A stretch of DNA of 17,179 bases from Candidatus Hodarchaeota archaeon (GCA_016839815.1 JAEOTM010000111.1:1-17179), one strand, 5' to 3'; shown: positions 445 to 15,490, numbered from the stretch's first letter. The notes: a model not told the origin generated them from the letters alone. Made by a program: numbers and translations.

Positions 445-582
445 CCCTCATCCCTCACCGTTTATTGTTGTTAAACAACGTGGAAAGGTTCATTCCTCTC
501 GTTTTCTAGAAGAAATAGCCTCAAGGAGTCGTAAAAAGTGTATAGAAGTAGCTTCTGGTCTTATGTCTGGGGGTTGCTTCTT
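445..582 (+). repeat. 23S-3'-end/trailer-derived intergenic repeat, copy 1
   Basis: GTGGAAAGGTTCATTCCTCTCGTTTTCTAGAAGAAATAGCCTCAAGGAGTC (480-530), then TTCTGGTCTTATGTCTGG (553-570). Preceded by the hairpin GTTGTTAAACAAC. Confidence 0.9.
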
Positions 583-591
583 ATTCTAAGA

Positions 592-1227
592 TTACACCCT
601 CTTCATTTTTCTCAAAACATAGAAAACTATACCCAGGGGTAGATTCCATCTTGGAACAACCTTCATGTAATTTCTATAATTTGAACCAAATTTGTCAATA
701 AGATCTTTTTCTTCTTCCATGGTTGATAGGTATAATAACACTAATGCTATGGCGCCTATCATTGTTATAATTAGATGTTGTCTTATTAATATAAATGAAA
801 CGATTATTGATGACCACCCCAGATATTGTGGGTGTCTGACTAAACTATATATTCCCGAATCAACAATTACCGTTGTAGATAGAAAATTCTCTCCTTTTTG
901 TACTTGTCCTTTTCTTGGAAAAAGTACATATGGTACTGGAACCAATAAAATCCCAATTATTAAGAAAATCAACCCTAGAACAAGTATCAGACCATCTTTC
1001 TCCTGATTAATGAATATTTCACCCAATAGTAGTTCCGCAATTAATAACATCCCCCATCCCCAACCCAGGGTAATTTGTTTTGGAGACTGGAAGTCTGCTC
1101 TCATTTTCCTCATCTGTTTTTTGTTTACTGAACGCTTCGTCATCCCGTATCGTAATAACGTGTATGACTTAAGTACTGGTCTTCTGTTTGATGGTTCTCT
1201 TCGTTCTTGACATTTCATTGAAGTCAT
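592..1227 (-). CDS. Isoprenylcysteine carboxylmethyltransferase (ICMT/Ste14)/PEMT-family integral membrane methyltransferase
   Basis: Family motifs GIYSLVRHPQYLG and EEEKDLIDKFGSNYRNYMKVVPRW, plus 4-5 hydrophobic segments. ATG at 1227 overlaps the upstream TGA (ATGA). The true start could be further downstream (MRKMRADF). Confidence 0.85.
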   Translation of the reverse strand: MTSMKCQERREPSNRRPVLKSYTLLRYGMTKRSVNKKQMRKMRADFQSPKQITLGWGWGMLLIAELLLGEIFINQEKDGLILVLGLIFLIIGILLVPVPYVLFPRKGQVQKGENFLSTTVIVDSGIYSLVRHPQYLGWSSIIVSFILIRQHLIITMIGAIALVLLYLSTMEEEKDLIDKFGSNYRNYMKVVPRWNLPLGIVFYVLRKMKRV

Positions 1228-2321
1228 TTTTCTAGGGCCCAAAAGTATCTCTGATGTGGGAGAGATGCTTTGACAAATTCCACCTGGGAAAAAGGACTAT
1301 CTTGGACTAATTCTCGAAAGCTTTTTTCATTATAGAATTTCGATCCAAAGCCAATTTCATACCATTTATGCAAGATTAAATCGAAATGGGGTAGTTTTTC
1401 TGCATCTAATCCGGGAATCATTGGTTCTCCCACAATTAACACTCCTTCCTTGGACAATAATTGATGCAAGTATTTAAAAGCTTGCTCTCTATATTTTCCT
1501 GACTGATTCATTTCGTGCAAGACATGATGGAGAAGGATTACTTCATATTTTCCTTTATTATGTTTCACATGGGATTCTAGGTCTGTGAATAGAATGGTTA
1601 TCCTCTTTTCTTCTTTCTCTTTGGATATTTTCTTCTTAATTTCCTCAACAGCTTCCAGATCGATGTCTATCCCTACTATTCTTGCCTTTGGATATGCCTT
1701 TGCCCAATTCTGTAAATTAAATCCGAATCCACATCCCACTTCTAGTAAATTTCCTCCTTCTTGGAGTATCTTTGATTGTATTGGATACTTTTCTGTAAAT
1801 AGCTGAATATGCTTTTTACCCAGGCGTGCGCTTAATTTATGTTCAGAGATGCGATTTTCTTTTGGAATACTTTGGTGGTTGTTGGTATCTCCTGTCTTAA
1901 AATTGGACATGATTTTCTCCTGAGAATGTGTCATAGTATAGAATAATCCTAGATACTCACCTGAGTACAACCTACTGGCAGTATCAATTAATAGCTCAAA
2001 TATATAGGGGGCGGTTTTCAATCCCTGTTTATGTTTTTTATCGTGAACGAAGATACCCGTAACTAGTGCTATCTGAAGCCATCCCTCCAGATAGTTAGTG
2101 TTTAACGATAATTCCCGTGACAATTCATCAGGTGTGAATGTTATTGCGGAAACTCTGTTTTCTGAGGTATTTTTCGCTTTAGTTAAAAGATAATCAAAAA
2201 TCCCTATCTTTCTCCCTAATCCAAACCACAGTACCACCTGAAATCCAAACATACTCTGAATCACATACTTTTGCAAAGCATCTTCAAGAGTTGGGTCCAC
2301 ATCGGTTTCATCCTGATTCAT
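1224..2321 (-). CDS. Class I SAM-dependent methyltransferase with N-terminal winged-helix/dimerisation domain (Rv2258c-like)
   Basis: Motif I LLEVGCGFG, acidic IVGIDID, YEVILLHHVLHE, LSKEGVLIVGE. N-terminal TPDELSRELSLNTNYLEGWL. GGAG Shine-Dalgarno-like sequence upstream. Confidence 0.9.
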   Translation of the reverse strand: MNQDETDVDPTLEDALQKYVIQSMFGFQVVLWFGLGRKIGIFDYLLTKAKNTSENRVSAITFTPDELSRELSLNTNYLEGWLQIALVTGIFVHDKKHKQGLKTAPYIFELLIDTASRLYSGEYLGLFYTMTHSQEKIMSNFKTGDTNNHQSIPKENRISEHKLSARLGKKHIQLFTEKYPIQSKILQEGGNLLEVGCGFGFNLQNWAKAYPKARIVGIDIDLEAVEEIKKKISKEKEEKRITILFTDLESHVKHNKGKYEVILLHHVLHEMNQSGKYREQAFKYLHQLLSKEGVLIVGEPMIPGLDAEKLPHFDLILHKWYEIGFGSKFYNEKSFRELVQDSPFSQVEFVKASLPHQRYFWALEK

Positions 2322-2548
2322 TTTTTACTCCTACGTAATTTTTTTCTTTATACAATCTCTGGTACTAAATACACCCTTAAATAACATTCCCCCTTCAACC
2401 TATTGCTATCTGTGTCCCTCTACATCTCCTTCTCTGAATCTTTTCAGAATTTCCACTATTTCTTTTGTTGTTAATGATCTATTCTGAAGACTTTCTGCTA
2501 ATTCAATTATTCTATTTTATAGATTAGTCATTAAAACAGCTTTAACGC

Positions 2549-2863
2549 CCTATTGGGTTCGCAAGATGAATAGGATATGAGTGCTTCTAGTCTACGGGTT
2601 ATCCGGAAGGGTACTGCCCGGCCGCCACGCGCTAACCGATAAGTGCTGAATGCATCTAAGCACGAAACGGACCTTGAAAAGATGAATCCATTTTACCATC
2701 AGCGCTAAGCCATGGGGATTGGCGACGATAACCATGAGATGGTAAACGAGTGCTGGGATCTTTCTTGAAAGAAATCCCGTTGATAGAGGAGTTTTCTGAT
2801 AAGAAATACGCGTGGAGGATCTTCGACATGCTTAGCTGGCTCCCACTAATCGCACAAGGGCTT
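2549..2863 (+). pseudogene. rrl: Isolated 3'-terminal fragment (~315 nt, domain VI, H95-H101) of an archaeal-type 23S rRNA
   Basis: GATAAGTGCTGAATGCATCTAAGCACGAAAC (2638-2668) is the conserved H97 region (recalled consensus GAUAAGuGCUGAAAGCAUCUAAGcaCGAAAC). CTTCTAGTCTACGGGTTATCCGGAAGGGTACTGCCCGGCCGCCACGCGCTAA resembles archaeal H96. GTTGATAG (2779-2786) and TAGCTGGCTCCCACTAATCGCACAAGGGCTT match the terminal helices in the expected order. The sequence upstream is AT-rich and non-rRNA, so this is not a full gene. Confidence 0.85.
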
Positions 2864-2981
2864 CAAATTGAAGATTAGTGTGGAAATTTTCAGTCCTCTC
2901 GTTTTCTAGAAGAAAAAGCCTTAAGGAGTCAAATAGAGTATATGTGTCAGTCTTCTGATTTATGTCTGATGGTCAATTCTT
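2864..2981 (+). repeat. Repeat copy 2 core (putative 23S 3' trailer), contiguous with the 23S fragment
   Basis: GTGTGGAAATTTTCAGTCCTCTCGTTTTCTAGAAGAAAAAGCCTTAAGGAGTCAAATAGAGT...TTCTGATTTATGTCTGATGGTCAATTCT directly follows the rRNA 3' end and the hairpin CTTCAAATTGAAG. Confidence 0.92.
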
Positions 2982-3148
2982 TTTTACTTCTTCTTTGTTT
3001 AATCTTTGAATATCGATTAGTTTTTCTCAAATAGATTCTCTACTATTTAACTTGAGGGTGTAGTACTGGAGTGACAAGAGTAATATATTAGGTAGAACTG
3101 GAGAAAGCGATAGACTATTAAGGAATAAAGATAATCGGATTTAGTCAC

Positions 3149-4387
3149 GTGAGTTTTCAGGTGAGGTTCTTGGTCGAATTCAAAAAAGCAATCTTCCAGA
3201 ATGGAATTAGCACTTTTCTCTTCATATGTACTATTATTCTCCCATTTCTAGATTTTTTTGGGCCTATCTTTACTAAATCGAAAGAAGGAGTTTATAGTGC
3301 TGAATTCATGTTTCGCTCTCTCTATGTTGGCTGGATGTCTGATGTCCATCATATGGCTGGTCATGATGAGGTTCCGTATGAATCCTTTATCCCAAGTTCC
3401 TATAAACTATTCCTTAATCTCAGTTACATATTTCTTATTCTCAGTTTGGTTTTCGCTAGTATTTTGTTCCTTTATTCAGTTATTGTGTTCCCACAGGAGC
3501 AAATCACTAACCGTTTTAAACAAGTCAGAAGGATGTTCTTCTTTGTTTGTATAATCATATTTCTCCTACCCACTGCGTTTCTATTTCTGGTTGCTTCTTC
3601 TCCAAGTACTTATTCCCAAGCAGATTGGAGTTCACCCACCTTACTTAATCCGTTGATTATTCTAGATTTATCAGTTGGAATTTTATGCTTACTTTTTGTC
3701 TTTTATAACATAACTAAGAAGGAAAAGCTCTTCAAACAACTAGAAGGCCCCCATTCGATATTTAAACGATTTTTACTTGCTCCCCAAAAAGTTCTTTCTG
3801 ATTCATTGGGAGTCAACCAAAGACCTAGGCAACCCACCAAGATGGAACGATTAGGTTTAAGTTTAAAAAATGGATTAGGAGTTCCTGTAAACACTGCTGC
3901 AGAGGTACTTCAGACTTCTAGCAACATTGACATTCCACGAAAAATTAAGCATCTATTTCAAAAATGGGAGGAGAATGATTCACTAATACTACGTGGTGGA
4001 GTATTTTTTATCGAAAAGACTCCTGCTCCGACAAGCTATTGTCAATTGTGCGGTGGTGGTTCAATAGAAAGCGAGATATATTTTCAATGTTGTACTTGTG
4101 AACAATACGTGTGTTCTCCTCATTTCACTCAACTTACCTCTGTTGGAAAACCGACTTGTTCAAATTGTGATGGTAAGCTGTATTATTTTCCTTTTACCTG
4201 TCAAGGTTGTCAATTGGATTTCAACTCAAGAAGCGAGATTAATGGAGAACCAGAATTTTGTCCTCTATGTGGTCACTCTTTACCTTCTCAAGAGCTGTTA
4301 ATAAACACACACTTCTCTCCCCCACCTAAAATACAAGAGAATCCTCACAATAATAGAGACAATGAGAAGAACAAGGACAAACTATAA
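3149..4387 (+). CDS. Membrane protein (about 4 TM) with C-terminal RING-like Zn finger plus zinc ribbon
   Basis: 412-aa ORF with GTG start. Four hydrophobic segments. C-terminal CQLC-x12-CCTC-x4-CSPH-x11-CSNC, followed by CQGC...CPLC. Confidence 0.8.
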   Translation: MSFQVRFLVEFKKAIFQNGISTFLFICTIILPFLDFFGPIFTKSKEGVYSAEFMFRSLYVGWMSDVHHMAGHDEVPYESFIPSSYKLFLNLSYIFLILSLVFASILFLYSVIVFPQEQITNRFKQVRRMFFFVCIIIFLLPTAFLFLVASSPSTYSQADWSSPTLLNPLIILDLSVGILCLLFVFYNITKKEKLFKQLEGPHSIFKRFLLAPQKVLSDSLGVNQRPRQPTKMERLGLSLKNGLGVPVNTAAEVLQTSSNIDIPRKIKHLFQKWEENDSLILRGGVFFIEKTPAPTSYCQLCGGGSIESEIYFQCCTCEQYVCSPHFTQLTSVGKPTCSNCDGKLYYFPFTCQGCQLDFNSRSEINGEPEFCPLCGHSLPSQELLINTHFSPPPKIQENPHNNRDNEKNKDKL

Positions 4388-4410
4388 GAATTTTGTGTCC
4401 CCCGATCATA

Positions 4411-4545
4411 TAACCGATGGTGGTAACTGTAACCATTTACTGGTTAGGAAACGCTGGGATCTTTCGTGAAAGAATTCCGTTGATAGAGCAGTTTTCGAAT
4501 AAGAAATACGCGTGGTTCTGGTCTTATGTCTGGTGGTCACTTCTT
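4411..4545 (+). repeat. Repeat copy 3: 23S fragment joined directly to the repeat 3' end (internal deletion)
   Basis: 4453-4515 aligns to 2752-2815 at 58/64 positions (counted by eye). It is followed immediately by TTCTGGTCTTATGTCTGGTGGTCACTTCTT (4516-4545). Confidence 0.9.
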
Positions 4546-4572
4546 CCTACATATCTTATTTGTGAACCTTTT

Positions 4573-5100
4573 CTATCTTGATTTCTTGGAAATCACTTTT
4601 CGGGCTAGATATTGAATTATCTCTTCGACTTCAGTCCCCCCGCGTTTCGGATAACATTCAAAGTAGGGTGCTTCAAGTTCGTGTGCTAATGTTTTTGCTT
4701 CTTCAGAGGACACTTCTTCTGCTTCTTCCCCCTCGGTTTGAAAACCAACGATCGCTATTGGCAGGGGTATAGGAATATAGTTTTCAAAATCCTGTTTCCA
4801 TGTCAGTATTTGGTGAAAAGAGTCTTGATTCCCTTTACTAAAGAAAATAATGATGGCTGAAGCTCCTCGGTAGTAGCTGGGTCGGAGGATTCCAGCAGTG
4901 TCAACTAAGATTATTTTCAGCTGAATATCATCAATCTGAATTTTCTTTGTAGTAATATCCACACCTAGTGTGGGGAGATAGTTGGTATCGTATTTATTTT
5001 CCACAAATCGACGAATGAATTTTACTTTCTGGTCATCCACACTCCCCAGACAACAAATCTTTAGCAAATATTCCTCCGAGTTTTCATTTTCGTTTGTCAC
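4573..5100 (-). CDS. Rab-like small GTPase family protein, degenerate (probable pseudo-GTPase)
   Basis: LLKICCLG, effector loop YLPTLGVDITTK, LVDTAG, RPSYYRGASA, VSSEEAKTLAHELEAPYFE. Lacks GKS/T, NKxD and SAK. GTG start with GGGAG upstream. Confidence 0.85.
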   Translation of the reverse strand: MTNENENSEEYLLKICCLGSVDDQKVKFIRRFVENKYDTNYLPTLGVDITTKKIQIDDIQLKIILVDTAGILRPSYYRGASAIIIFFSKGNQDSFHQILTWKQDFENYIPIPLPIAIVGFQTEGEEAEEVSSEEAKTLAHELEAPYFECYPKRGGTEVEEIIQYLARKVISKKSR

Positions 5101-5115
5101 TCTTTGTTCTCCCTT

Positions 5116-5625
5116 CTAATTCCCAATCCCTTGTTTCGCTAGGATCTGAAAGATGTGTTCGATTTGTGTCTTGTCAGCTATTTGTGTTTCAAAGTACTGA
5201 CCATTGAGTTCCTTAGCTAATTGTTCTCCTTCCTCTCTAGTCACTTCTTCGCTCTCAGTAATTATTCCTACTATCGCTGTGGGAACTTGAATTGTTATTT
5301 TTTGTTTGAATTCTCTATGGAAGTCTTTCACCATTTGATAGGCTTTTCGATCATCCTTTCCAAAGAGAAATATCCCTGCGGACGATCCTCGAAAAAAGCT
5401 GGGACGATTGGGACGGAAAAAGTCCTCTCCTGCTGTTATCGTAATAATAAGTTTCACCTGTAAAGAGTCGAGTGTAATTTTCTTGGTAGGGATATCCACA
5501 CCCAGTGTAGGTAAGTCATCTCTGTCAAAGACATTATCGGCCGTTATTCGTCCAAATTGCTTGTTTAATTCTGTATTTTTCCCACTAATACTAATTTTCA
5601 GCAGATAGCCGTTTTCATTTGACAT
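5116..5625 (-). CDS. Rab-like small GTPase family protein, degenerate (probable pseudo-GTPase), tandem paralog
   Basis: LPTLGVDIPTKKI, ITAGEDFFRPNRPSFFRGSSA, VTREEGEQLAKELNGQYFET. P-loop, the G3 Asp and G4 are absent. Confidence 0.82.
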   Translation of the reverse strand: MSNENGYLLKISISGKNTELNKQFGRITADNVFDRDDLPTLGVDIPTKKITLDSLQVKLIITITAGEDFFRPNRPSFFRGSSAGIFLFGKDDRKAYQMVKDFHREFKQKITIQVPTAIVGIITESEEVTREEGEQLAKELNGQYFETQIADKTQIEHIFQILAKQGIGN

Positions 5626-5933
5626 ATCTAGTACTCTTCCTTGGAGTCTGTATGTACTGTGTGAATACGAATTTAGGACTATCTAGAGAAACTCTACTTG
5701 TATCAAAAAAATTCATTCCGCGTTACACGGTTATTGTGTTTCATCTTGACTTTTCCGGTCATATTCACTTGTAGTATTTAAGAAAACTATCTTATTCCCT
5801 CCCTCATCCCATTAGTAATGTTTCCGATAAATTCCGACCTGTCTCAGCTGGGAGTATCCCGAAAATGATGAAAATGAACATTATTTTGTGAATAATTCCA
5901 GAATTTGGATTTTTTCCCACGTTACACGGTTTG

Positions 5934-6050
5934 AACTGGGGCTTTCACTCGTATGAGAGCCATCTGTGTGGAAATTTTCAGTCCTCTCGTTTTCTCACAG
6001 AAATAGCTTATAGGAGTCGTACAAGTATGTTTGTGAGATTTTTGGTCTTG
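5934..6050 (+). repeat. Repeat copy 4
   Basis: GTGTGGAAATTTTCAGTCCTCTCGTTTTCTCACAGAAATAGCTTATAGGAGTC...TTTTGGTCTT. Preceded by ACTGGGGCTTTCACTC, which resembles AGCTGGCTCTCACTC of the rRNA end. Confidence 0.88.
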
Positions 6051-6123
6051 AACAAGAGTTCATGGGTAAAAGAACTGCACTATAAACTTAATAAGGAAAT
6101 TCTCATTTATTAGGTTTAGAGAC

Positions 6124-6195
6124 TGAAATTCTCAGGTCTCGTGACAGTTAGCCTGAAGGAGTCTCAAAAGTAACCGTGGAGAGCGTTCTGAGTTT
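6124..6195 (+). repeat. Repeat copy 5 (highly degenerate)
   Basis: GAAATTCTCAGGTCTCGT...TAGCCTGAAGGAGTC...GCGTTCTG keeps the core motifs in order, with the central hairpin shortened. Confidence 0.55.
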
Positions 6196-6226
6196 GATAA
6201 GTCTTTTTTCTTCCTTTTTTTGATGG

Positions 6227-6907
6227 TTGCGAGTTATCGTGTTTCTTCTGAGTATATTTTTTCTTAATTGGTTAGTTAGTTCGTATTCTCTGCTTCTACC
6301 TCATTGGTTTGCTTTTGTTACGTGTTCTATTCTTGTGATTGAAGGGTTAATTGTCTTTTTCTTCTGGAGAGATTGGCGTTCCGTTCTTGTCTTCTCTGGG
6401 GTAGTAAATACGACTTCCTCTCTGTTAGCTCTTTTTACTCAATATGTTCTGTCGAGTAGTGGATCTTTTTTCCTTTATTTGATCAATTATGGTGAATTAA
6501 TAGCCATTGAGGGAAAATTGGATCTTTCACACTTTTTCTATGTTCTCTTTGAATTCTTCCTCTTCTTTCTCTTAACGGTTTTAATTGAGGGATTAGTTGC
6601 ACTAGCTCTGTCAGTTCCTCTTTCTGGACCACGTCGTATTCTTGTCCTTTTCTACGCCAATTTTGTATCCTATGTAACTCTCATCCTTTCCTTCTTTTCT
6701 TTTGGTATCTTGTATGGTATACAGAATCAAGGGTCATCTAAAACAGCGCAAGATTTTCTGGAGGGAATACTCTTTCAAACCAGTCCACCTGGAGTTCACC
6801 CCTCTCTTTTTCCACAATTCCTTGTTTTGTTTGGCCTTCTCTTTTTTCTTTTTATTCTGGGTTGGAAAAAGAAATTTCTTTCTCCTTCACATATTTCAGA
6901 AAAATAG
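6227..6907 (+). CDS. Hypothetical polytopic membrane protein
   Basis: 226-aa ORF with about 6 hydrophobic segments and an internally repeated motif (LVIEGLIV...VVNTTS / VLIEGLVA...YANFVS). TTG start uncertain. Confidence 0.7.
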   Translation: MRVIVFLLSIFFLNWLVSSYSLLLPHWFAFVTCSILVIEGLIVFFFWRDWRSVLVFSGVVNTTSSLLALFTQYVLSSSGSFFLYLINYGELIAIEGKLDLSHFFYVLFEFFLFFLLTVLIEGLVALALSVPLSGPRRILVLFYANFVSYVTLILSFFSFGILYGIQNQGSSKTAQDFLEGILFQTSPPGVHPSLFPQFLVLFGLLFFLFILGWKKKFLSPSHISEK

Positions 6908-7062
6908 ATCTCCGACGTCATTGGGAAGTCTTATAGCTGGCTCTCACTCCTCGCACACGGGCTATTGTTGCCAAACAATGTGGAAATTGTCAGTCCTCCC
7001 GCTTTCTTCAAGAAATAGCCTTAAGGAGTCTAATAGCGTGTGTTCGCGAGCATTCTGGTCTT
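6907..7062 (+). repeat. Repeat copy 6 (keeps ~55 nt of the 23S 3' end)
   Basis: GATCTCCGACGT (compare GATCTTCGACAT at 2818), TAGCTGGCTCTCACTCCTCGCACACGGGCT, hairpin ATTGTTGCCAAACAAT, core GTGGAAATTGTCAGTCCTCCCG...GCCTTAAGGAGTC...TTCTGGTCTT. Confidence 0.9.
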
Positions 7063-7181
7063 CTATCCTCAAAAATCTTTCTTTCTGCATTAAAAAATTG
7101 ATTTCCAGAGCTAATATTCAAATCCTGATTTTTTCTTTTATTTCAATTCTTTTGGTCGACAGTGTCGTTTTATAAGGACAT

Positions 7182-8495
7182 ATGGTTTCCAACAATCTGG
7201 AGATTCTTATGAGAAATAGCCAAATTAAGCAATTTGACCTTCTTTTATGTTTTCTGATAATAATATTCAATCTTTTAACTCCTATCATGATTAACGAGGC
7301 TATTATTGTATCAGAATCCGAGGGAATTAAGCTTGACCAAGAAGTTGATGAAGGGACTATTTATATCACGCCAGATACTGGTTACAATTACGTGTGGATA
7401 AATAATATGGGTACACAGTTACTTTTTCTGTCTATGATCTCTAATACTTATCCTTCTCCTGTTCGAGTATTCCTAGCTGAACATTTTTATTCATTGAATA
7501 AAAATATTGAGATATTCACAGGCAGTGAACTTAGCTATATAGAAGTATACAACGATACAAACAACAATCACCGAATCGACTCTAATTTTACAGCTAATCC
7601 AATAAATTCGGAACTAACATACTATCTGATAATTAATGCCTCAAAAAGTTTTCTCATTTCTCCAGTGACAAAAATGGATCGGGAAAATGGTTCTTCTTAT
7701 GAATGGGGAATAAAATATCTTGAAGTTCAAGCAGGTTTAGTAAAAACCCCGTTAGGGCCTATTTGGGATGTAACTGATCTAATTATTCCTTTTCTCGAAT
7801 TTAATTACCAATACATTGTGGATCTAAGCGTGAATAAAACTATTTTGAAAAATACTTTCAAAATGGGGTCAGTTGAAGAGAAATATAAGGATTTATTCAG
7901 GAAATCCAGCTTATCTCTGCTATATTCATCCTTTAATTATGTAACAAACCATTCTACTGCATTAATTAATGAAAGTGTCCTATTATCCCCCTCAAATATA
8001 AATACAACATTTTTTCTCAATGACCTCTCTCAGGAATATAAGGATTTTAGAATGTGGGAAAATATCTTTAAAAGCAATTATACATTAGATTTTGAGAATC
8101 AGGGTAGTGAGTATGAGATCAGTACTATTAATGCCCCCTCGAATACCATAGATCCTGAAATGTTTTCATCTGGACATTTAAACTTTATCCAAATATCGAA
8201 TTATCTTTCCTCACTTCTTCCTCCGATCTATTCTAATATTGATTCTCTTGCATTGAATAGGTCATTAGCGTTTGATAACCCTTTCATTAGATACCGGATA
8301 TGCTATCCTGAATGGTCTGGTTCATCTCTTGATCATGATCCTTGGATGATTTCTTATTTCACACCTATTGAAAATCCCACTAGTGAGATATTGTTTGATT
8401 TAAGTGTGATAGCCACTCTTTCAATATTTGTTGTTGGTGTAGTTACATTAAGCATCGCTTTAATTCGCTGGAAAGAATTATTAGTAAATAGATAA
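7182..8495 (+). CDS. Secreted, C-terminally membrane-anchored surface (glyco)protein
   Basis: N-terminal hydrophobic signal, many N-x-S/T sequons, YPEWSGSSLDHDP motif before a C-terminal TM helix with a basic tail. Confidence 0.75.
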   Translation: MVSNNLEILMRNSQIKQFDLLLCFLIIIFNLLTPIMINEAIIVSESEGIKLDQEVDEGTIYITPDTGYNYVWINNMGTQLLFLSMISNTYPSPVRVFLAEHFYSLNKNIEIFTGSELSYIEVYNDTNNNHRIDSNFTANPINSELTYYLIINASKSFLISPVTKMDRENGSSYEWGIKYLEVQAGLVKTPLGPIWDVTDLIIPFLEFNYQYIVDLSVNKTILKNTFKMGSVEEKYKDLFRKSSLSLLYSSFNYVTNHSTALINESVLLSPSNINTTFFLNDLSQEYKDFRMWENIFKSNYTLDFENQGSEYEISTINAPSNTIDPEMFSSGHLNFIQISNYLSSLLPPIYSNIDSLALNRSLAFDNPFIRYRICYPEWSGSSLDHDPWMISYFTPIENPTSEILFDLSVIATLSIFVVGVVTLSIALIRWKELLVNR

Positions 8496-8554
8496 GGAGT
8501 AATGTCCGAGCTATTTCAGAACTGTCGAAACCAAGTGCTTTTATCGGGAGTGTC

Positions 8555-9064
8555 ATGTCGTTAAACCAACCCAAAAATGATTATTTGAATTCATTAGATC
8601 CACAACAATCCTCTAAATCCTCTCAGAGGTCTATTGAGGATCTTCATGGGTCAACATTACAAACCTATTGGTTTATTTTACGTTTTTCCGAAAAAACTAT
8701 AACATACACTGATGTTCAAGAGTACATGGGTTTCTCCAGCAAAAGTTCTGCTATTTACCAGTTAACCAAACTATGTGAAATTGGGATTCTAATTAAAACC
8801 TCAAATGGTTATGAAATCGTATCTAAACCCAAACCGCGGGCATTACAACCATTTTTACTTATTAAAAACTATCTTATTCCAAAATCTTTTCTTTATGGAA
8901 TCATTCTTTTAGTATTTCATCTTTTATTACTAGTTTTTTTTCTCAAATTAGATGAACCGTTGGTATTAGTTGCAAGTCTTCCTAATCTGATAGCTATCAT
9001 CTTATTTTTCTTAGAAGCAGTCGTTATCTGGCAAGGAAGACCTATTAGAAATTTATCAAAGTGA
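8555..9064 (+). CDS. Winged helix-turn-helix protein with two C-terminal TM helices (membrane-anchored regulator)
   Basis: LHGSTLQTYWFIL...TYTDVQEYMGFSSKSSAIYQLTKLCEIGILIK...GYEI is an archaeal wHTH pattern. Two hydrophobic helices follow. GGGAG upstream. Confidence 0.75.
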   Translation: MSLNQPKNDYLNSLDPQQSSKSSQRSIEDLHGSTLQTYWFILRFSEKTITYTDVQEYMGFSSKSSAIYQLTKLCEIGILIKTSNGYEIVSKPKPRALQPFLLIKNYLIPKSFLYGIILLVFHLLLLVFFLKLDEPLVLVASLPNLIAIILFFLEAVVIWQGRPIRNLSK

Positions 9065-9218
9065 AGAAAGAACTCTTTTCTAAAAGTATGAAATCTCCCT
9101 CTCTGACTTTAATTATCCAATACTAGTCAGAATTTACCGCCTTATTTTTAAAATTGAGAATATTTGAATGGATTTAAAGAAAAAATGGGGAAATAAAAAA
9201 TGCTTTTCATTCCCCAAA

Positions 9219-11393
9219 TTAAGCAGCATAGATTTTTATATCTGTTTCATGGAAAAGGGGAACATCTTGAACCAGAGTGTAGTACCTATAACCACCTAAA
9301 AAGAGTTGCCACGTCTTAATTTTGACGGTTAGTAGTGCTGTGAGTGTAAAGGTGAATGTTCCTGGTTCCATTCCAACAGAGAAGGTTCCCACTCGGCCAA
9401 AACTCCCACTTGAATCTTGTTTTATATCATCAAATGAAATTCCAGCTGCTTCTCCCCCGGTTCCTGTGGTAGCACCATCATGTGTTCCTGATGATTTTGA
9501 AAAATATGAATTCCATTGTACGAGATCCGTAAGGAGAGGAAATACATAACCAAGAGGACCACAGAGAGGTCCAAACATATCTCCAATTGTGTCTACGAGC
9601 AACGGTCCCATATCCTCTAGATGTTCGCCAGTACCAGCAGGACTACCCCAATAACTAGGATATTGACCTACTGTGCCATAAGGCCATCCGTTACATGTTA
9701 TTTGGGTATCTAACCAATAATAAATTCCTTTATAATCAATAAAGATTGGGCAATACCAGCTCTTTAATTGATCAATCGCTTCATCAGGGATATGGAAGTT
9801 TACACCATAATAGAAATTTAACATATCATCCTTTCTCTTTGCACGAATATAATAATCAAATTCGCCTAAGAAATATCTGTTCACATTTTGGATATTATGC
9901 CACAATAAAGTTGAACCCCCAAGGAAAGTATTGTAAAAACTGGTCCACATGTTTGAACTCCCTGGATCAGGAAATGGATCCCATCTTGCATTTGTGTAAA
10001 GCTCTCCAGTTACTAACCAATAACCTGTATATGTAGTAATCACTATTTCGACATGCAATTCGTCCTTATACTTTGATTCAGTTAATACATTGATTGTATA
10101 ACTAAAACTTCCATATGCCCATCCGCTTTTAACTAGTGCTCCATCGACGTATACTCTTACAATACGGGAGTTACTATCACCATAAGCTTGTCCTCTTATC
10201 TTCAGTAACGCCCCTGAAATACCCCTTGGGACATCAACACTGAGATGCTGTCTCGAATAACCAGTATTTTTAAAAAGGTACTCACTTCCTGTTTTTGCCA
10301 GATATGAGTTTGTCTGATCAAGCATTTCTTCTGATGCGGAATAATAAGAATTCACATATGCATCTACTCTCCAAAAATTATCTTGATAATCATATGTGGT
10401 TAAGACGATCGTAACCTTATTCTTATTAGTTGCTGATCTCATTAAAGGATGGATTGTTGCACTGTCCCAAGCAAAGTAAAACGATTGACTTACAACCTCA
10501 TCATATAAAACCCAGTTATTGTTGAACTTAATTCTGAGATTTCGATGGTGACCATCATTAAATGAACTCCCAGATACAATCAATTGTTCCCCATTTGCTA
10601 TATCCTGTCCTGGGAGATAAATCTCTTTTATCTGCTCTGACCAACCCGTATTACGAAACTCGTGATAATCAAAAAATTGGCCACGATCATATACTGTTTG
10701 AGTTGATTGAATGGAACCAATTTTCTGGTTTATTAGAGGATTTCTTTGATTTTCTACTTCAATTCCAGAGAAACCTGTAAGTTCAAAAATTTCCGTTTTA
10801 AGTGACTTAATAGAAGCTTTACCTATCGTGGTGTTATTAGTCAATCCAATTGGTCGACTCCCATATATCAGATTCAAGAAAGGCAATTTTGAAAGACTTG
10901 GTTCATCAATATTCCCGAAATAAAAGAAAATTTCTAGTTGATATTCCATTGAAGAATCAAGAACCATCTTTATCCTTTTATTAAGCGAATACTCGGTTGC
11001 TTTTGACCACCAGAATGTTTCATCACAAGAAGTAGACTTCAAATATGGGACATAGAATTTCAGATATCTATTTTGATCATTGTCTGTTTGATCAGATAAA
11101 CTGGATGTATTATTCAAATTGACTCCATTATTCCGAGTCATCTCGTTATCCTCTTTAACTATCATAAATGGAATTTCGACCCATTTTATATTATCCCAAA
11201 GAGCTAATATGGATCTCTCTGAAGTTATATCTACATTTTCTAAACCAATTTTATTTAACGGAATTTCGATCAATCTTTCATCATTAGAAGTGATTGAGTC
11301 GGATTCAAGCTCGAATATGCTAAATCCAATGACGATTTGAGTTCCTAACACCCCTAAGAATAAAAAGATCTGTATTTTTCTTTTTATACTCAT
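9219..11393 (-). CDS. Large secreted beta-rich hypothetical protein
   Basis: 724-aa ORF with signal peptide (MSIKRKIQIFLFLGVLG...). Internal duplication: FRNTGWSEQ...IVLTTY..FWRV / FKNTGYSRQ...IVITTYTGYWLV. Confidence 0.75.
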   Translation of the reverse strand: MSIKRKIQIFLFLGVLGTQIVIGFSIFELESDSITSNDERLIEIPLNKIGLENVDITSERSILALWDNIKWVEIPFMIVKEDNEMTRNNGVNLNNTSSLSDQTDNDQNRYLKFYVPYLKSTSCDETFWWSKATEYSLNKRIKMVLDSSMEYQLEIFFYFGNIDEPSLSKLPFLNLIYGSRPIGLTNNTTIGKASIKSLKTEIFELTGFSGIEVENQRNPLINQKIGSIQSTQTVYDRGQFFDYHEFRNTGWSEQIKEIYLPGQDIANGEQLIVSGSSFNDGHHRNLRIKFNNNWVLYDEVVSQSFYFAWDSATIHPLMRSATNKNKVTIVLTTYDYQDNFWRVDAYVNSYYSASEEMLDQTNSYLAKTGSEYLFKNTGYSRQHLSVDVPRGISGALLKIRGQAYGDSNSRIVRVYVDGALVKSGWAYGSFSYTINVLTESKYKDELHVEIVITTYTGYWLVTGELYTNARWDPFPDPGSSNMWTSFYNTFLGGSTLLWHNIQNVNRYFLGEFDYYIRAKRKDDMLNFYYGVNFHIPDEAIDQLKSWYCPIFIDYKGIYYWLDTQITCNGWPYGTVGQYPSYWGSPAGTGEHLEDMGPLLVDTIGDMFGPLCGPLGYVFPLLTDLVQWNSYFSKSSGTHDGATTGTGGEAAGISFDDIKQDSSGSFGRVGTFSVGMEPGTFTFTLTALLTVKIKTWQLFLGGYRYYTLVQDVPLFHETDIKIYAA

Positions 11394-11942
11394 TTTAAAC
11401 CCGGAAAGTTGTTTTCTTGAAAATTCGAAAAGTTTTGACTGATATTCGGGAAATTATAGTATATAAAGTCTTTCACTAGTAAATCCATTATTTTTAATCA
11501 CCTGAAAGTCTCTTATATTCCGTTTCAACTCTAGACGTTTTAAAACATGCTCTCTTGACTCTTTCCAATTCAGGGGATTGTTTTTTTTGCTGATAAATGG
11601 GCAAAGAAGGAGGATTTAATCATGTATGTGCATGGGAAGATGCTTTGTAAAAAGGTGAATCAAAAGCATCCATATTTCGCTGTTATATTATTCAGATGTA
11701 TTATTTCTCAGTATTTTTTATCTTAAATACACTTACTTATCTCAAAAAAGAGTTTAAAGGTTACAAATATAAAATGGATTTTTGTAAGTCTTAAATAGCG
11801 TTAGACTAATCAAATTCATAATTTCTTTAGGAGGAAGGGTTGTTCTTTATGTGATGACTAATCAGAAAGTTATGGAATACATTCAAATGGCGAAGAATCT
11901 ATTGGATGATCCAACCCTATAGAGAAACTGGATTTTAATTAC

Positions 11943-12080
11943 TACTCCTTGCACACGGGCTACTAATGAAAAATTAGTGTGGAAAGTGTCAGTCCTCTCG
12001 TTTTTTTGAAGAAATAGCCTTAAGGAGTCAAATAGAGTGTGTTCAAGAGTGTCTGGTTTTTTATCTGGTGGTCATTTCTT
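11943..12080 (+). repeat. Repeat copy 7
   Basis: ACTCCTTGCACACGGGCT, hairpin ACTAATGAAAAATTAGT, GTGGAAAGTGTCAGTCCTCTCG...GCCTTAAGGAGTCAAATAGAGTGTG...TCTGGTGGTCATTTCTT. Confidence 0.92.
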
Positions 12081-12162
12081 TTTCCATACTAGCTTTCTGC
12101 TAAACTTTTTTATTCTAAGTATTGATAAGGTTTTTAAATTACTCCTCTGATCAGCCTTCGAG

Positions 12163-12981
12163 GTGGCTGGTTTGTTGAAAAAAAAAGCACTCATTTTTGG
12201 AAATTTAATGATCCTTTGCATTATATCTTTGACGATAGTTCGGGCAACCGATAGTGAGGTATGGAAGGTAAGAGCTGGAACAGAAATAACCTATGAGTTT
12301 TCTAATGCTAGAGATAACGAAGAAACGTCTACATTGTTCTTTTTTACTACAACTGATGATGTTCTTAAAAGTATAGAGGTTACAAAAGGTACTAAATTCA
12401 CCATTACGCTTACAAAGTTTAAAACTTTAGAGCTTAGCATGGGAGGAGAATACGAATATCCTTCAGGGACTATTACGGTACAATTAAACTCTACTGAGAG
12501 TGTGACTTCAAAAGAGTTTGATTTATCGTCTGGTGGAGCTGGACAGTCGGGGGCAGGACTTATTTGGCCTGGAACTTCATTTATCAATACTGTTACTGAA
12601 AACATGACTTTTTATCAAGAATTGGAGGATCAAGGAATAGATGAGGACAATACATCAACTAATCTGTACAGTAGATGGTACGAGTTTGATGGAAAAGATC
12701 TCTTAACCTCCTATAGAAATACAACAATTCGAACCGCCACACACCAACCACTTTCCTCATTCTTCGATATTGAAAAGATCAACGTTACTACTGGATGCCT
12801 TACGGAATTTTATTACCTTAGAAAAACCTTTGATTATCAGAATTACACCTTGATTAGGGAAATTGAATGTTCTTATAAAATGGATAATCTAAAGCTTGGG
12901 TCTAAGGGGTCTGTTTCAGGATTTGAAGTACTTGTTATTATACCTATTATCATAACTATCTATAAGAGAAAAAATCAATGA
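12163..12981 (+). CDS. Secreted surface protein with PGF-CTERM-like C-terminal sorting signal
   Basis: Signal peptide; mature part begins WKVRAGTEITYEF. The C-terminus VSGFE-VLVIIPIIITIY-KRKNQ has the motif/TM/basic layout of archaeosortase-type targets. Confidence 0.75.
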   Translation: MAGLLKKKALIFGNLMILCIISLTIVRATDSEVWKVRAGTEITYEFSNARDNEETSTLFFFTTTDDVLKSIEVTKGTKFTITLTKFKTLELSMGGEYEYPSGTITVQLNSTESVTSKEFDLSSGGAGQSGAGLIWPGTSFINTVTENMTFYQELEDQGIDEDNTSTNLYSRWYEFDGKDLLTSYRNTTIRTATHQPLSSFFDIEKINVTTGCLTEFYYLRKTFDYQNYTLIREIECSYKMDNLKLGSKGSVSGFEVLVIIPIIITIYKRKNQ

Positions 12982-13025
12982 GAAGAGTTAGGAACCAAAG
13001 ATTAGACCAATATTGATGCTCATCC

Positions 13026-13165
13026 AGCTGCCACTCCTCGCACAAGGGCAATTTCTTATTAGAAAGGTGGAAAGGGTCAATCCTCTCGTTTTTCTTAGAA
13101 AAAGCCTTAAGGAGTCAAATAGTGTGTGTTCAGGGGCTTTCTGCTCTTATGCCTGGTGGTTCTTT
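13026..13165 (+). repeat. Repeat copy 8
   Basis: AGCTGCCACTCCTCGCACAAGGGC, hairpin TTTCTTATTAGAAA, GTGGAAAGGGTCAATCCTCTCG...GCCTTAAGGAGTCAAATAG...TTCTGCTCTTATGCCTGGTGGT. Confidence 0.92.
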
Positions 13166-13318
13166 TTTTAATATTGGTTTCTTGTGAATTCCACTTTTAA
13201 TCCATTATTTTGCAGAAACCTTCCCAATCACTTTCTATCTATGATGGGAAAGTTTATTATTATCTTTGTTCCTTATGCAGGGCAATATTTTATTATTTAA
13301 AGGGAAAGCGAAACGAAG

Positions 13319-13858
13319 ATGAGTTTTAAACCTGAGGAGCAGAAAAATACCATTATTGGTATTATGGGTTCAATCTTTTTTGTATTTTTAACAATTCTCG
13401 TACCGTTGTTTAGGATATTTGGGGGTTTTCTAACCTATTCTAGCAGCTCTATATCAGGAGAGTGGTATTGGAATGAAGTAAGTATTTCTGGTATGATTTC
13501 TCGTGAAATGAGTTATCCTGAGTATGTTGCGCAAAATGACGAATTATCTGGACTTTGGCTCACAATTGGTGATTGGGGATTGTTTTGGATTGTATTAGGT
13601 TTTTTTGGAGCATTTTGCATAATTCTTCCCTCCATTCGTAAATTTCCTGAGAAACCTATTATTGGAGTTATAGTCCCTACGATTGGCCTTATTACTGGTC
13701 TTCTTGCCACCGTAGTCGAGTTTGGTCTGTTTTTCCTTGTGTTGAACGAGGAGGATTGGGGGGCGACTACTCCTGATCTGAATCTTGTATTACTAGCTTG
13801 TTTTATCCTAGGTTGGATAGTATTCATAATCAGCTATTATTTTTCCCTTAAAAAGTGA
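13319..13858 (+). CDS. Four-TM hypothetical membrane protein
   Basis: 179-aa ORF with four hydrophobic helices and a larger first loop. Confidence 0.75.
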   Translation: MSFKPEEQKNTIIGIMGSIFFVFLTILVPLFRIFGGFLTYSSSSISGEWYWNEVSISGMISREMSYPEYVAQNDELSGLWLTIGDWGLFWIVLGFFGAFCIILPSIRKFPEKPIIGVIVPTIGLITGLLATVVEFGLFFLVLNEEDWGATTPDLNLVLLACFILGWIVFIISYYFSLKK

Positions 13859-13878
13859 GTTTCTTTACTTATCTTGGA

Positions 13879-14000
13879 TTCTTGAGAAGAATAAGTTCTG
13901 TAAATTTTCAGTCCTCTCGTTTTTTCTTTTAAGAAAAAGAAATAGCCGTAAGGAGTCAAATAGAGTGTATGTGTCAGTCTTCTGGTCTGGTGGTCACTTC
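13879..14000 (+). repeat. Repeat copy 9 (no recognisable rRNA portion left)
   Basis: AAATTTTCAGTCCTCTCGT...AATAGCCGTAAGGAGTCAAATAGAGTGTATGTGTCAGTCTTCTGGTCTGGTGGTCACTTC. Confidence 0.9.
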
Positions 14001-14185
14001 ATCTTTCATATTTTCATTATCAGGAATTTTCCTTTACAAGACTGATTCGAAGATTTTCGCGAGTTATCCCTCTAACCTGGTAGACCCTCTATTGAGGGTT
14101 CTTCTCACCATCAAGTTAATTTGGTTATCCTTTTGTTAAGGATCATCAGATTCGAGAGATTCGGATGATTTTCCTCTTTTTTGTT

Positions 14186-14770
14186 TTACTCCCAAACCGC
14201 TATTTCTTTCCATGGAACTTGTAGGGTTTTGAATACGCGAATTATTGAATGAGCATTCCGTTTCTCACAATAGATTATGCTTTTACCCAATTTACGAGCA
14301 TTTAATTGGGCTACTATTCCCTCAATTCTTGACTCGTAAGTTTTATTCTTATAATGAGAAGTGCTTTTTCCTCCATATAAAGCTCTATGCAATTTTTTCC
14401 TGGTTGCAGGGGGTACATCTTTCAACTCATAAATCAGCAGCATTTTTGGAACAAATTCACTTTCGTCCACCATGACTTGAATGGGTCTTCCATACAATAA
14501 AATTCCTTCTCCTGCTAACGCGAATTGGATTTCTAATTCTTTACTTAGTTCTTCTATTGATAAATGGGTTGTTTGAATATTCTCACTTTTCTGTTGGTTT
14601 ATACGTGTTACCTGTTCAGGATTTTTCTGATCATATATCACCGCAATATCAATATCAGACGTCTTTGTGTCATTACCAGTGGCTACACTTCCAAATAAGA
14701 CAATTGCCAATATATTCTCTTTTTCTGATATTTTTTTGACAAAACGAGTCGCCTCTTCAAATTTAGACAT
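14186..14770 (-). CDS. Minimal nucleotidyltransferase (MNT, MntA-like antitoxin) with C-terminal Cas2/PaaX-like extension
   Basis: VLFGSVATG...SDIDIAVI is the GS-x10-DxD signature. Extra C-terminal ~85 aa: LLIYELKDVPPATRKKLHRALYG...LGKSIIY. Overlaps the upstream gene by 8 bp. Confidence 0.88.
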   Translation of the reverse strand: MSKFEEATRFVKKISEKENILAIVLFGSVATGNDTKTSDIDIAVIYDQKNPEQVTRINQQKSENIQTTHLSIEELSKELEIQFALAGEGILLYGRPIQVMVDESEFVPKMLLIYELKDVPPATRKKLHRALYGGKSTSHYKNKTYESRIEGIVAQLNARKLGKSIIYCEKRNAHSIIRVFKTLQVPWKEIAVWE

Positions 14771-15137
14771 CTAGCTCCCTCTTACAAATCTTTTTTAACT
14801 TTTGAAACAGTTCCATAGCTTCTTGTGCGTACTTGCCATTTGTTTTTCTCCCGTAGACTAATCCTGGACGGAGTTCTTCAAATCTGGTTACAATCTTAGC
14901 TATCTCCTCACTCTTTTCTCCCATCCTTTTTTCACGTCTTAATATTCCTGCTAGTCTATTATGCTTGATATCTCTCTTTAAGTGCAGAGTATTCAACTTA
15001 TGCATTGTAGCATTAATATAGTGAGCACTAATCAACATTAACAGTTCTATTATGGTTGCATAGTCAGTTTCGGTATCTAACTTGCTTAATGTGCTTTCTA
15101 GTTCAGTAATTTTGCTTAAATGGTAGTCGATTTTCAT
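14763..15137 (-). CDS. HEPN-domain protein (putative toxin of the HEPN-MNT pair)
   Basis: 124-aa all-helical protein with H-N-R-L and C-terminal R-x4-Y (LRPGLVYG...AQEAMELF). Coupled to an MNT gene. GGGG upstream of the start. Confidence 0.72.
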   Translation of the reverse strand: MKIDYHLSKITELESTLSKLDTETDYATIIELLMLISAHYINATMHKLNTLHLKRDIKHNRLAGILRREKRMGEKSEEIAKIVTRFEELRPGLVYGRKTNGKYAQEAMELFQKLKKICKRELDV

Positions 15138-15190
15138 AAAATAGCCCCCTTATAGGAAAAGGATGTCTTTTCTTTCGCTGGTCTAGTTCG

Positions 15191-15265
15191 ACAGAAAGTA
15201 ACATATAAAGATTTCTGTGGATATAGTACTACAAAATCACACTCAATTATTTTTTTGTAGTACTA
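15191..15265 (-). promoter_or_regulatory. Putative HEPN-MNT promoter with two inverted-repeat operators
   Basis: TTTATA box on the minus strand (15204-15209), flanked by the inverted repeat ACAGAAA/TTTCTGT (15191-15197/15212-15218). Perfect 13-bp inverted repeat TAGTACTACAAAA/TTTTGTAGTACTA (15224-15236/15253-15265). Confidence 0.55.
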
Positions 15266-15357
15266 GTACCACATAGATCATTAAGATTCCCATTAAAAAA
15301 AATGTCACAGCAATTTTTTATGCTATTTCAGTTCTTTAAAACTTTGATTCTTTCACA

Positions 15358-15490
15358 CTCCCACTAATCGTACACGGGCTATTTTTTTAGAAAAAGTGTG
15401 GAAAGGGTCAGTCCTCTCGTTTTCTAGAAGAAAAAGCCTTAAGGAGTCTAATTGCATGTGTTGAACGCTTCTGGTCTTATGTCTGGTGCA
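15358..15490 (+). repeat. Repeat copy 10
   Basis: CTCCCACTAATCGTACACGGGCT (nearly identical to the 23S end at 2840-2862), GTGTGGAAAGGGTCAGTCCTCTCGTTTTCTAGAAGAAAAAGCCTTAAGGAGTC...TTCTGGTCTTATGTCTGGTG. Confidence 0.93.

Follow-up and report, generated by a model that had tools for sequence, protein, structure and literature searches.

Hairpins in displaced 23S rRNA trailer copies of a Hodarchaeota gene array: conserved pairing and a candidate origin in templated mutation

How can the hairpins of a repeat keep their base pairing from copy to copy while their sequence changes? This question is raised by a stretch of 17,179 nucleotides (nt) from a Candidatus Hodarchaeota archaeon (GCA_016839815.1, JAEOTM010000111.1:1-17179; here called the window), which is an entire contig (C62, 17.2 kb) of a metagenome-assembled genome of 4.24 Mb in 206 contigs (G000). 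The window carries nine copies of a dispersed, co-oriented repeat, of which there are 37 across ten contigs of this genome. The repeat is an orphan domain VI end of the 23S ribosomal RNA (rRNA) with its trailer, and its copies bound gene cassettes in an array. These displaced tails have two hairpin modules that are absent from the working tail in the two genomes in which that tail is assembled. The reading that we favour, at a probability of roughly 0.45, is that displaced trailer copies acquired the hairpins secondarily, as palindromic expansions that hairpin-templated mutation has produced and maintained at a hot spot of recombination.

In the longest window copy (2549-2990), the first ~310 nt align with the 3′ portion of a genuine 23S gene, and a conserved core follows (GTGGAAA..CAGTCCTCTCG..GCCTTAAGGAGTC..TTCTGGTCTTATGTCTGG). 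No window copy has rRNA beyond domain VI when compared by blastn with the 3′ half of the authentic 23S of genome G004 (L038), and a search of the window against Rfam gave no family, rRNA included, at gathering scores, and nothing but two chance matches at E-values up to 1. For comparison we used four sister species (G002, G013, G018 and G031), which together with G000 make up a five-species clade; no 23S gene is assembled in any of the five, G002 having its 5′ part only. A core-profile search (nhmmer) of G000 and of the array contigs of the four sisters gave a set of 121 copies, 74 of which retain the rRNA-end anchor TCGCACACGGGC and are called anchored below. Arrays of this kind are absent from three genomes of family f3 (G025, G021 and G029), and neither a literature search nor PMC8813620 yielded a description of them.

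Hairpin 1 lies between the rRNA end and GTGGAAA, hairpin 2 (TTTCT-nnn-AGAAA) after the conserved block S1. An earlier note on this sequence had listed a set of these hairpins; all are present in the copies to which it assigned them, and in each of these copies hairpin 2 and then CCTTAAGG follow. The features of the window are these:

464-479, plus strand: hairpin 1 of copy 1, ATTGTTGTTAAACAAC; by its sequence GTTGTT-A-AACAAC, a near-perfect palindrome with a 1-nt centre
2549-2861, plus strand: longest orphan 23S rRNA fragment in the window, domain VI to the 3′ end; blastn to L038 covers 2564-2759, and the fragment abuts the repeat core directly
2861-2879, plus strand: hairpin 1 site of copy 2; the palindrome CTTCAA-A-TTGAAG at 2861-2873 lies 5′ of the usual register, and the usual 3′ arm ATTAGT is retained
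2880-2901, plus strand: conserved block S1 (GTGGAAA...CAGTCCTCTCG), found with nhmmer; complementary to the leader in G002 and G007
480, 5968, 6980, 11979, 13067, 13898 and 15398, plus strand: further starts of S1
2902-2917, plus strand: hairpin 2 (TTTTCT-AGA-AGAAAAA)
502-517, ~5990-6005, 7002-7017, 12001-12016, ~13089-13103 and 15420-15435, plus strand: further hairpin 2 sites
2918-2930, plus strand: block S2 (GCCTTAAGGAGTC), which contains the CCTTAAGG palindrome and pairs with leader CCTTAGG/CCTTAAG
4453-4557, plus strand: partial copy, a 63-nt rRNA piece with the distal trailer block (TTCTGGTCTTATGTCTGGTGGTC) and without the hairpin region
6964-6979, plus strand: hairpin 1 of copy 6, ATTGTT-GCCA-AACAAT
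11962-11978, plus strand: hairpin 1 of copy 7, ACTAAT-GAAAA-ATTAGT; the same 18-nt allele occurs in G002 and G018
13051-13066, plus strand: hairpin 1 of copy 8, ATTTCT-TATT-AGAAAG
13879-13891, plus strand: hairpin-1-like palindrome of copy 9, TTCTT-GAG-AAGAA, without an rRNA anchor and out of register
13920-13944, plus strand: extended hairpin 2 of copy 9, TTTTTTCTTTT-AAG-AAAAAGAAATA, with an 8-bp stem
15381-15397, plus strand: hairpin 1 of copy 10, ATTTTT-TTAG-AAAAAGT

Does the pairing of hairpin 1 exceed what its composition would give? The spacer from the rRNA end to GTGGAAA measures 17 or 18 nt in 65 of the 74 anchored copies, laid out as one T, a 6-bp stem and a loop of 4-5 nt; in 5 of the 74 it is the hairpin-less 7-nt TAACCGT. 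Two palindromes, at 2861-2873 and 13879-13891, do not share the register of the others. We counted paired cells on ungapped alignments, with partner shuffling (500 shuffles) and slid registers as null models. For the 18-nt class, 87.0% of cells are paired, against 74.8% after shuffling (equalled by 0 of 500) and 33-54% in slid registers, and 20 cells have changed on both sides against 7.8 in the shuffles; the 17-nt class gives 78.3% against 70.8% (again 0 of 500) and 46-59%, with 16 such cells against 8.7. Pairing among the 62 unique spacers reached z=9.7 in a separate script, and mutual information is highest on the pairing diagonal. Chance palindromes in AT-rich DNA would be favoured by the fact that composition alone (a T-rich 5′ arm and an A-rich 3′ arm) yields 65-75% pairing, but no shuffle matches the observed pairing or covariation, and together with the slid registers and the mutual information this refutes the explanation, whose probability is practically nil.

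Neutral decay of one ancestor is excluded as well, as the earlier note had argued, and a process dependent on base pairing is operating. That the hairpins keep their pairing is thus borne out in both length classes, whereas the companion statement, that their sequence changes completely, goes too far: covariation is confined to pairs 2 (T-A/C-G), 4 (A-T/T-A/G-C) and 5 (A-T/T-A/C-G), and the other three of the six (pairs 1, 3 and 6; A-T, T-A and T-A) are almost invariant. The seven distinct perfect stems (ACTAAA, ACTAAT, ACTATT, ACTATC, ATTATT, ATTGTT and ATTTCT) require at least seven both-side changes and link into a chain in which each step changes one pair on both sides. Hairpin-1 alleles group in few families, and the copies are not independent.

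Are these hairpins part of the tail of a working 23S rRNA? Two contigs (G004:C44 and G007:C8, the latter JBHLMN010000029.1) have a 23S that extends well past domain VI into its trailer, and both authentic trailers lack either hairpin, reading GGGC(T)-(G/A)ACCGT-GTGGAAA and ..CG-TCAGTT-... Other species of the genus have this short hairpin-less form as their consensus. The trailer blocks S1, S2 and S3 find complementary sequence in the G002 and G007 leaders: GGACTG stands opposite CAGTCC, CCTTAGG or CCTTAAG opposite CCTTAAGG, and the distal block also pairs. In the CCTTAAGG palindrome we therefore see no more than one of the strands of the processing stem. In a cofold, the G007 leader and its own trailer form a long duplex (-83.6 kcal/mol), and the unpaired bulges fall at hairpin site 1 (UAACC) and hairpin site 2 (CAG). 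By eye, leader CUA/AAAG and trailer UUUU/GAAA make a possible bulge-helix-bulge, near-canonical 3-4-3, in a region that the cofold leaves open. In the working precursor the trailer blocks (GTGGAAA..CAGTCCTCTCG, GCCTTAAGGAGTC, TCTGATGTCTG..) pair with the 5′ leader as the processing stem. The two hairpins are AT-rich inverted-repeat expansions of 10-11 nt, and their sites coincide with the two places where the trailer strand bulges out unpaired. The absence of the hairpins from the two assembled working trailers and their position at processing-stem bulges are new with respect to the earlier note. As a separate candidate, the right arm plus GTGGAAA..CAGTC was considered as a 23S 5′ end (a circular or permuted junction) and rejected, the block being complementary to the leader and not homologous to the 5′ end.

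Hairpin-less working trailers bear on the proposal that the copies are once-working trailers, imported with their cassettes from different donors and each recording its donor's compensated spacer helix. The proposal would account for a tree on which the copies from the five sister species are fully intermixed and for cassettes common to different species; hairpins at bulges would be tolerable in a working stem, and the clade's own trailer, which is unassembled, could carry one. It has to face not only the two assembled trailers but also scans (two pattern scans of the genome collection and one metagenome scan) in which no hairpin-bearing copy had rRNA beyond the domain VI boundary. Furthermore, U4, the partner of the conserved leader A4, is lost in 52 of 68 hairpin-bearing copies (76%), against 2 of 6 short copies. 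On the tree, apart from the intermixed sister species, the G007 copies, with or without a hairpin, group with their host's own hairpin-less trailer (support 96/94), which argues against donors. On balance we consider import improbable.

G007 offers a wider view of its own array: the 52 kb behind its 23S gene hold ~28 co-oriented displaced copies, ~12 with hairpin 1 (alleles AATTTT/AAAATT and AGTTTT/AAAACT) and 5 of the short form. In some of these displaced copies the leader-pairing strand itself has been swapped for a T-run/A-run palindrome, which makes a third hairpin site: AGTAGTCCTATCG is replaced by, for example, GATTTTTCCAAAAATC (G007:C8, reverse-strand positions 2611, 11173, 15096, 26934 and 44057). 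The authentic 23S of the same genome (DZ2M.341) is interrupted between GGGAACGTGA and GCTGGGTTTAGACC by an insertion of ~320 nt that lies ~47 nt 5′ of the domain VI boundary (G007:C8 reverse strand, ~130-450 of the contig end; L126) and looks like an intron.

The orphan rRNA fragments share a 5′ boundary, which is identical in every long fragment (ACGTGTTGGAT, L038 ~1750-1764) from at least eight species, in hairpin and hairpin-less copies alike. Besides the window fragment at 2549-2861, it is found in G000:C192:5973-6380 and in L090, L092, L101, L139, L154 and L156. The boundary is the start of 23S domain VI, where assemblies of the real gene also tend to break. In some orphan fragments, the conserved GAATGCATCTAAGCACG loop has become GAATGCTTTCATTGAAAGAAAGCACG, a small palindromic insertion common to two species (G000:C192 ~6150-6180; L092 = G002:C9 ~60-90). 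In four marine-sediment metagenome runs, the summed contig depth is 130-220 over the rRNA fragment (2293-2865) and ~1-6 elsewhere in the window; this depth likely comes from conserved rRNA of other organisms mapping there.

How might the expansions have arisen? Hairpin 2 covaries as well (for example TTTACT/AGTAAT and TTTTCT/AGAAAT), and its length is stepwise, at 6-7, 15-17 or 23-26 nt. Size classes ~10 nt apart point to palindromic insertion in one step. In the long alleles, the 3′ arm AGAAGAAA equals the loop AGA of the short allele plus its arm AGAAA, and the added 5′ arm TTTCTTCT is the exact reverse complement of this 3′ arm, a further finding that goes beyond the earlier note. An arm gained as the reverse complement of what had been loop directly suggests template switching. 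Bacteria have a similar form of reverse-complement copying, quasi-palindrome correction. That replication template switching creates and repairs stems, and makes compensatory changes in one event, is documented (Monttinen and Loytynoja, 2022; PMC8794818). Our hairpins resemble the stems described there in the copying of reverse complements into perfect arms, in the conversion of loop into stem, and in multi-base or paired changes without G-U intermediates; they differ in that the process would here act on non-working orphan rRNA trailer copies at a recombination hot spot, and the likeness comes from allele comparison only. A new arm that is the exact reverse complement of adjacent sequence, with loop turned into stem, is seen in the long relative to the short alleles of hairpin 2 and in window copies 1 and 2.

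If template switching or quasi-palindrome correction copied one arm from the other, both sides would change together without any selected RNA. Several observations suggest that the process acts at the level of DNA. In window copies 1 and 2, where the centre is 1 nt or the register is shifted, the symmetry is that of a dyad and no fold as RNA is possible. Non-Watson-Crick pairs make up 19% of stem pairs (roughly 10% per site), close to the divergence of the adjoining rRNA remnant (9.4% per site), and wobble pairs are not in excess on the sense strand of hairpin 1 (GT 12 vs AC 18). Separately, how intact a hairpin is shows no correlation with core score (rho 0.05). P-nucleotide-type footprints were rejected as a source of the palindromes, the loops being non-palindromic (3-5 nt) and the register fixed.

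The hairpins could instead be selected RNA structures that act in the array as a 3′-end or insulator element, as an exonuclease block, or as a fold preventing the orphan tail from pairing with the leader. We regard this as a serious contender that is nevertheless unlikely. Several of its supports weigh directly against our preferred reading. A chain of stems that changes one pair at a time, with no shuffle reproducing its pairing, is the classical signature of selected RNA helices. Hairpin 2 has a sense-strand wobble excess (GT 22 vs AC 9). One 18-nt allele is identical in three species despite differing flanks, which hints at constraint. Our preferred reading also has against it that both hairpins sit at spots where a working stem would tolerate an insert, which fits past selection in the working position too; the authentic 23S-trailer junctions number just two, both outside the five-species clade of the window; and template switching is read from comparison of alleles, not from reconstructed ancestors. 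The fixed geometry shared by 65 of 74 copies, a 6-bp stem with a loop of 4-5 nt, would also suit a selected RNA, as would T-runs of at least five in 35% of hairpin-2 copies, with runs on both strands in 26%, given that the cassettes are read both ways; these frequencies fall short of what an archaeal oligo-T terminator would require. On the other side, the hairpin-1 stems are very weak (minimum free energy 0 to -4.5 kcal/mol), RNAalifold found no consensus structure in 41 copies, the mismatch load stays near that of the neighbouring remnant, hairpin 1 lacks the wobble asymmetry, and the 1-nt-centre palindromes are unable to fold. An oligo-T terminator role for hairpin 1 was rejected, since its sense strand has a T-run of at least five in only 8% of copies. 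The earlier suggestion of selection on structure in each copy draws support from the compensatory chain and from the wobble excess of hairpin 2; template switching, which the earlier note did not consider, would give such changes without selection. Under our preferred reading, the hairpins would have no essential function, and weak selection on the fold may contribute.

What moves the cassettes? They are bounded by co-oriented repeats, hold 1-3 genes and are read in both directions. Cassettes that are 85-97% identical between species, among them ones at 95-97%, adjoin unrelated hairpin alleles, and the breakpoints of identity differ among aligned pairs: ~-120 (-122; inside the rRNA part), -106, +32, and +53 to +80 relative to GTGGAAA, some of them near GCCTTAAGGAGTC (+32 to +80). 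This occurrence of the same cassette with different hairpin alleles in different species, with breakpoints that vary by pair, is another new observation. Given the varied breakpoints and the mixing of alleles, the module of rRNA end, hairpin 1, S1 and hairpin 2 assorts independently of both neighbour cassettes. Crossovers in conserved blocks and not at one site point to homologous recombination. We picture the repeat as a displaced copy of the last part of the 23S (at most domain VI) with ~150 nt of trailer. Copies of this kind lie between cassettes of accessory genes, in an array whose proper place is behind the 23S; homologous recombination in the flanking conserved blocks shuffles cassettes and hairpin alleles independently; and one hairpin arm would be copied from the other. 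As a side observation, a copy on G018:C266 has next to it a sequence 88.6% identical to the flank upstream of window copy 2.

The earlier note had also raised the idea of an attC-like substrate, and in its fullest form the hairpins would be structured recombination sites of an integron-like Asgard gene-capture system, in which the hairpin-less 23S end serves as attI and an unrecognised enzyme inserts and excises cassettes. The architecture does invite it: the head site is hairpin-less and the array sites bear hairpins that keep their shape while varying in sequence, and co-oriented copies separate cassettes of 1-3 genes. Beyond this conserved fold with variable sequence, the comparison does not hold. 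GGGCT on one flank and GTGGAAA on the other do not form an inverse repeat, pairing is confined to the inner 6 bp, and the flanks show no R-box symmetry; cassette identity ends at varied positions, with no fixed crossover; and formerly working hairpin-less copies lie inside arrays. No integron-type integrase was found in G000, and no recombinase domain in the open reading frames (ORFs) of the window. The single tyrosine recombinase gene of G000 (PF00589, C183) is orthologous in all five genomes and located off the array contigs, and is therefore probably XerA. The Y1 HUH transposase (PF01797) is absent from G000, G002, G007 and G031. We consider an attC-like role improbable. A Xer/dif-like or Y1 transposase site likewise found no support in the enzyme searches, and with PF01797 absent and hairpin sequence variable, the hairpins do not behave as IS200/IS605-type ends.

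Three known systems invite comparison with the arrays. In tandem genomic islands that sit at the 3′ ends of transfer RNA or transfer-messenger RNA genes (attR-type remnants), co-oriented, 5′-truncated ends of a stable-RNA gene likewise separate accessory blocks behind the intact gene. Here, however, the target is the 23S end with its processing-stem trailer, there is no island integrase and the breakpoints point to homologous recombination, and the displaced copies have extra hairpins absent from the working site. Integrons share the hairpin-less head site, the array hairpins of conserved shape and variable sequence, and cassettes of 1-3 genes, whereas our arrays lack IntI, R/L box symmetry and a fixed crossover, the hairpin spans only 17 nt, and most of the site (~150 nt) shares homology with the head site. 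The third system is the archaeal pre-rRNA processing stem with its bulge-helix-bulge motif: the conserved blocks of the repeat equal the trailer strand of such a stem and have leader complementarity in two genomes. The hairpins, unlike the blocks, do not belong to the working stem; they fill its bulges in displaced copies, for which there is no leader to pair with. Should mutation alone account for the hairpins, they would offer a clean natural case of compensatory evolution in which selection plays no part, and would caution against relying on covariation to discover RNAs among repeated sequences. Should they have a function, they would be the first candidate for a cis-signal in a gene-shuffling system of the archaea most closely related to eukaryotes.

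Some of the cassettes deserve mention for their contents. In one, two genes for small GTPases of the Ras family lie side by side (4573-5100 and 5116-5625, minus strand; Pfam Ras, E=1e-27 and 7e-21); these genes fit with an Asgard origin of the contig. Another pairs an ICMT/PEMT-like membrane methyltransferase with an S-adenosylmethionine-dependent methyltransferase (592-1242 and 1224-2321, minus strand). In a third, a Pol-beta-type nucleotidyltransferase gene overlaps a 124-aa ORF without a Pfam match (14186-14770 and 14763-15137, minus strand), a layout like that of a minimal nucleotidyltransferase toxin-antitoxin module.

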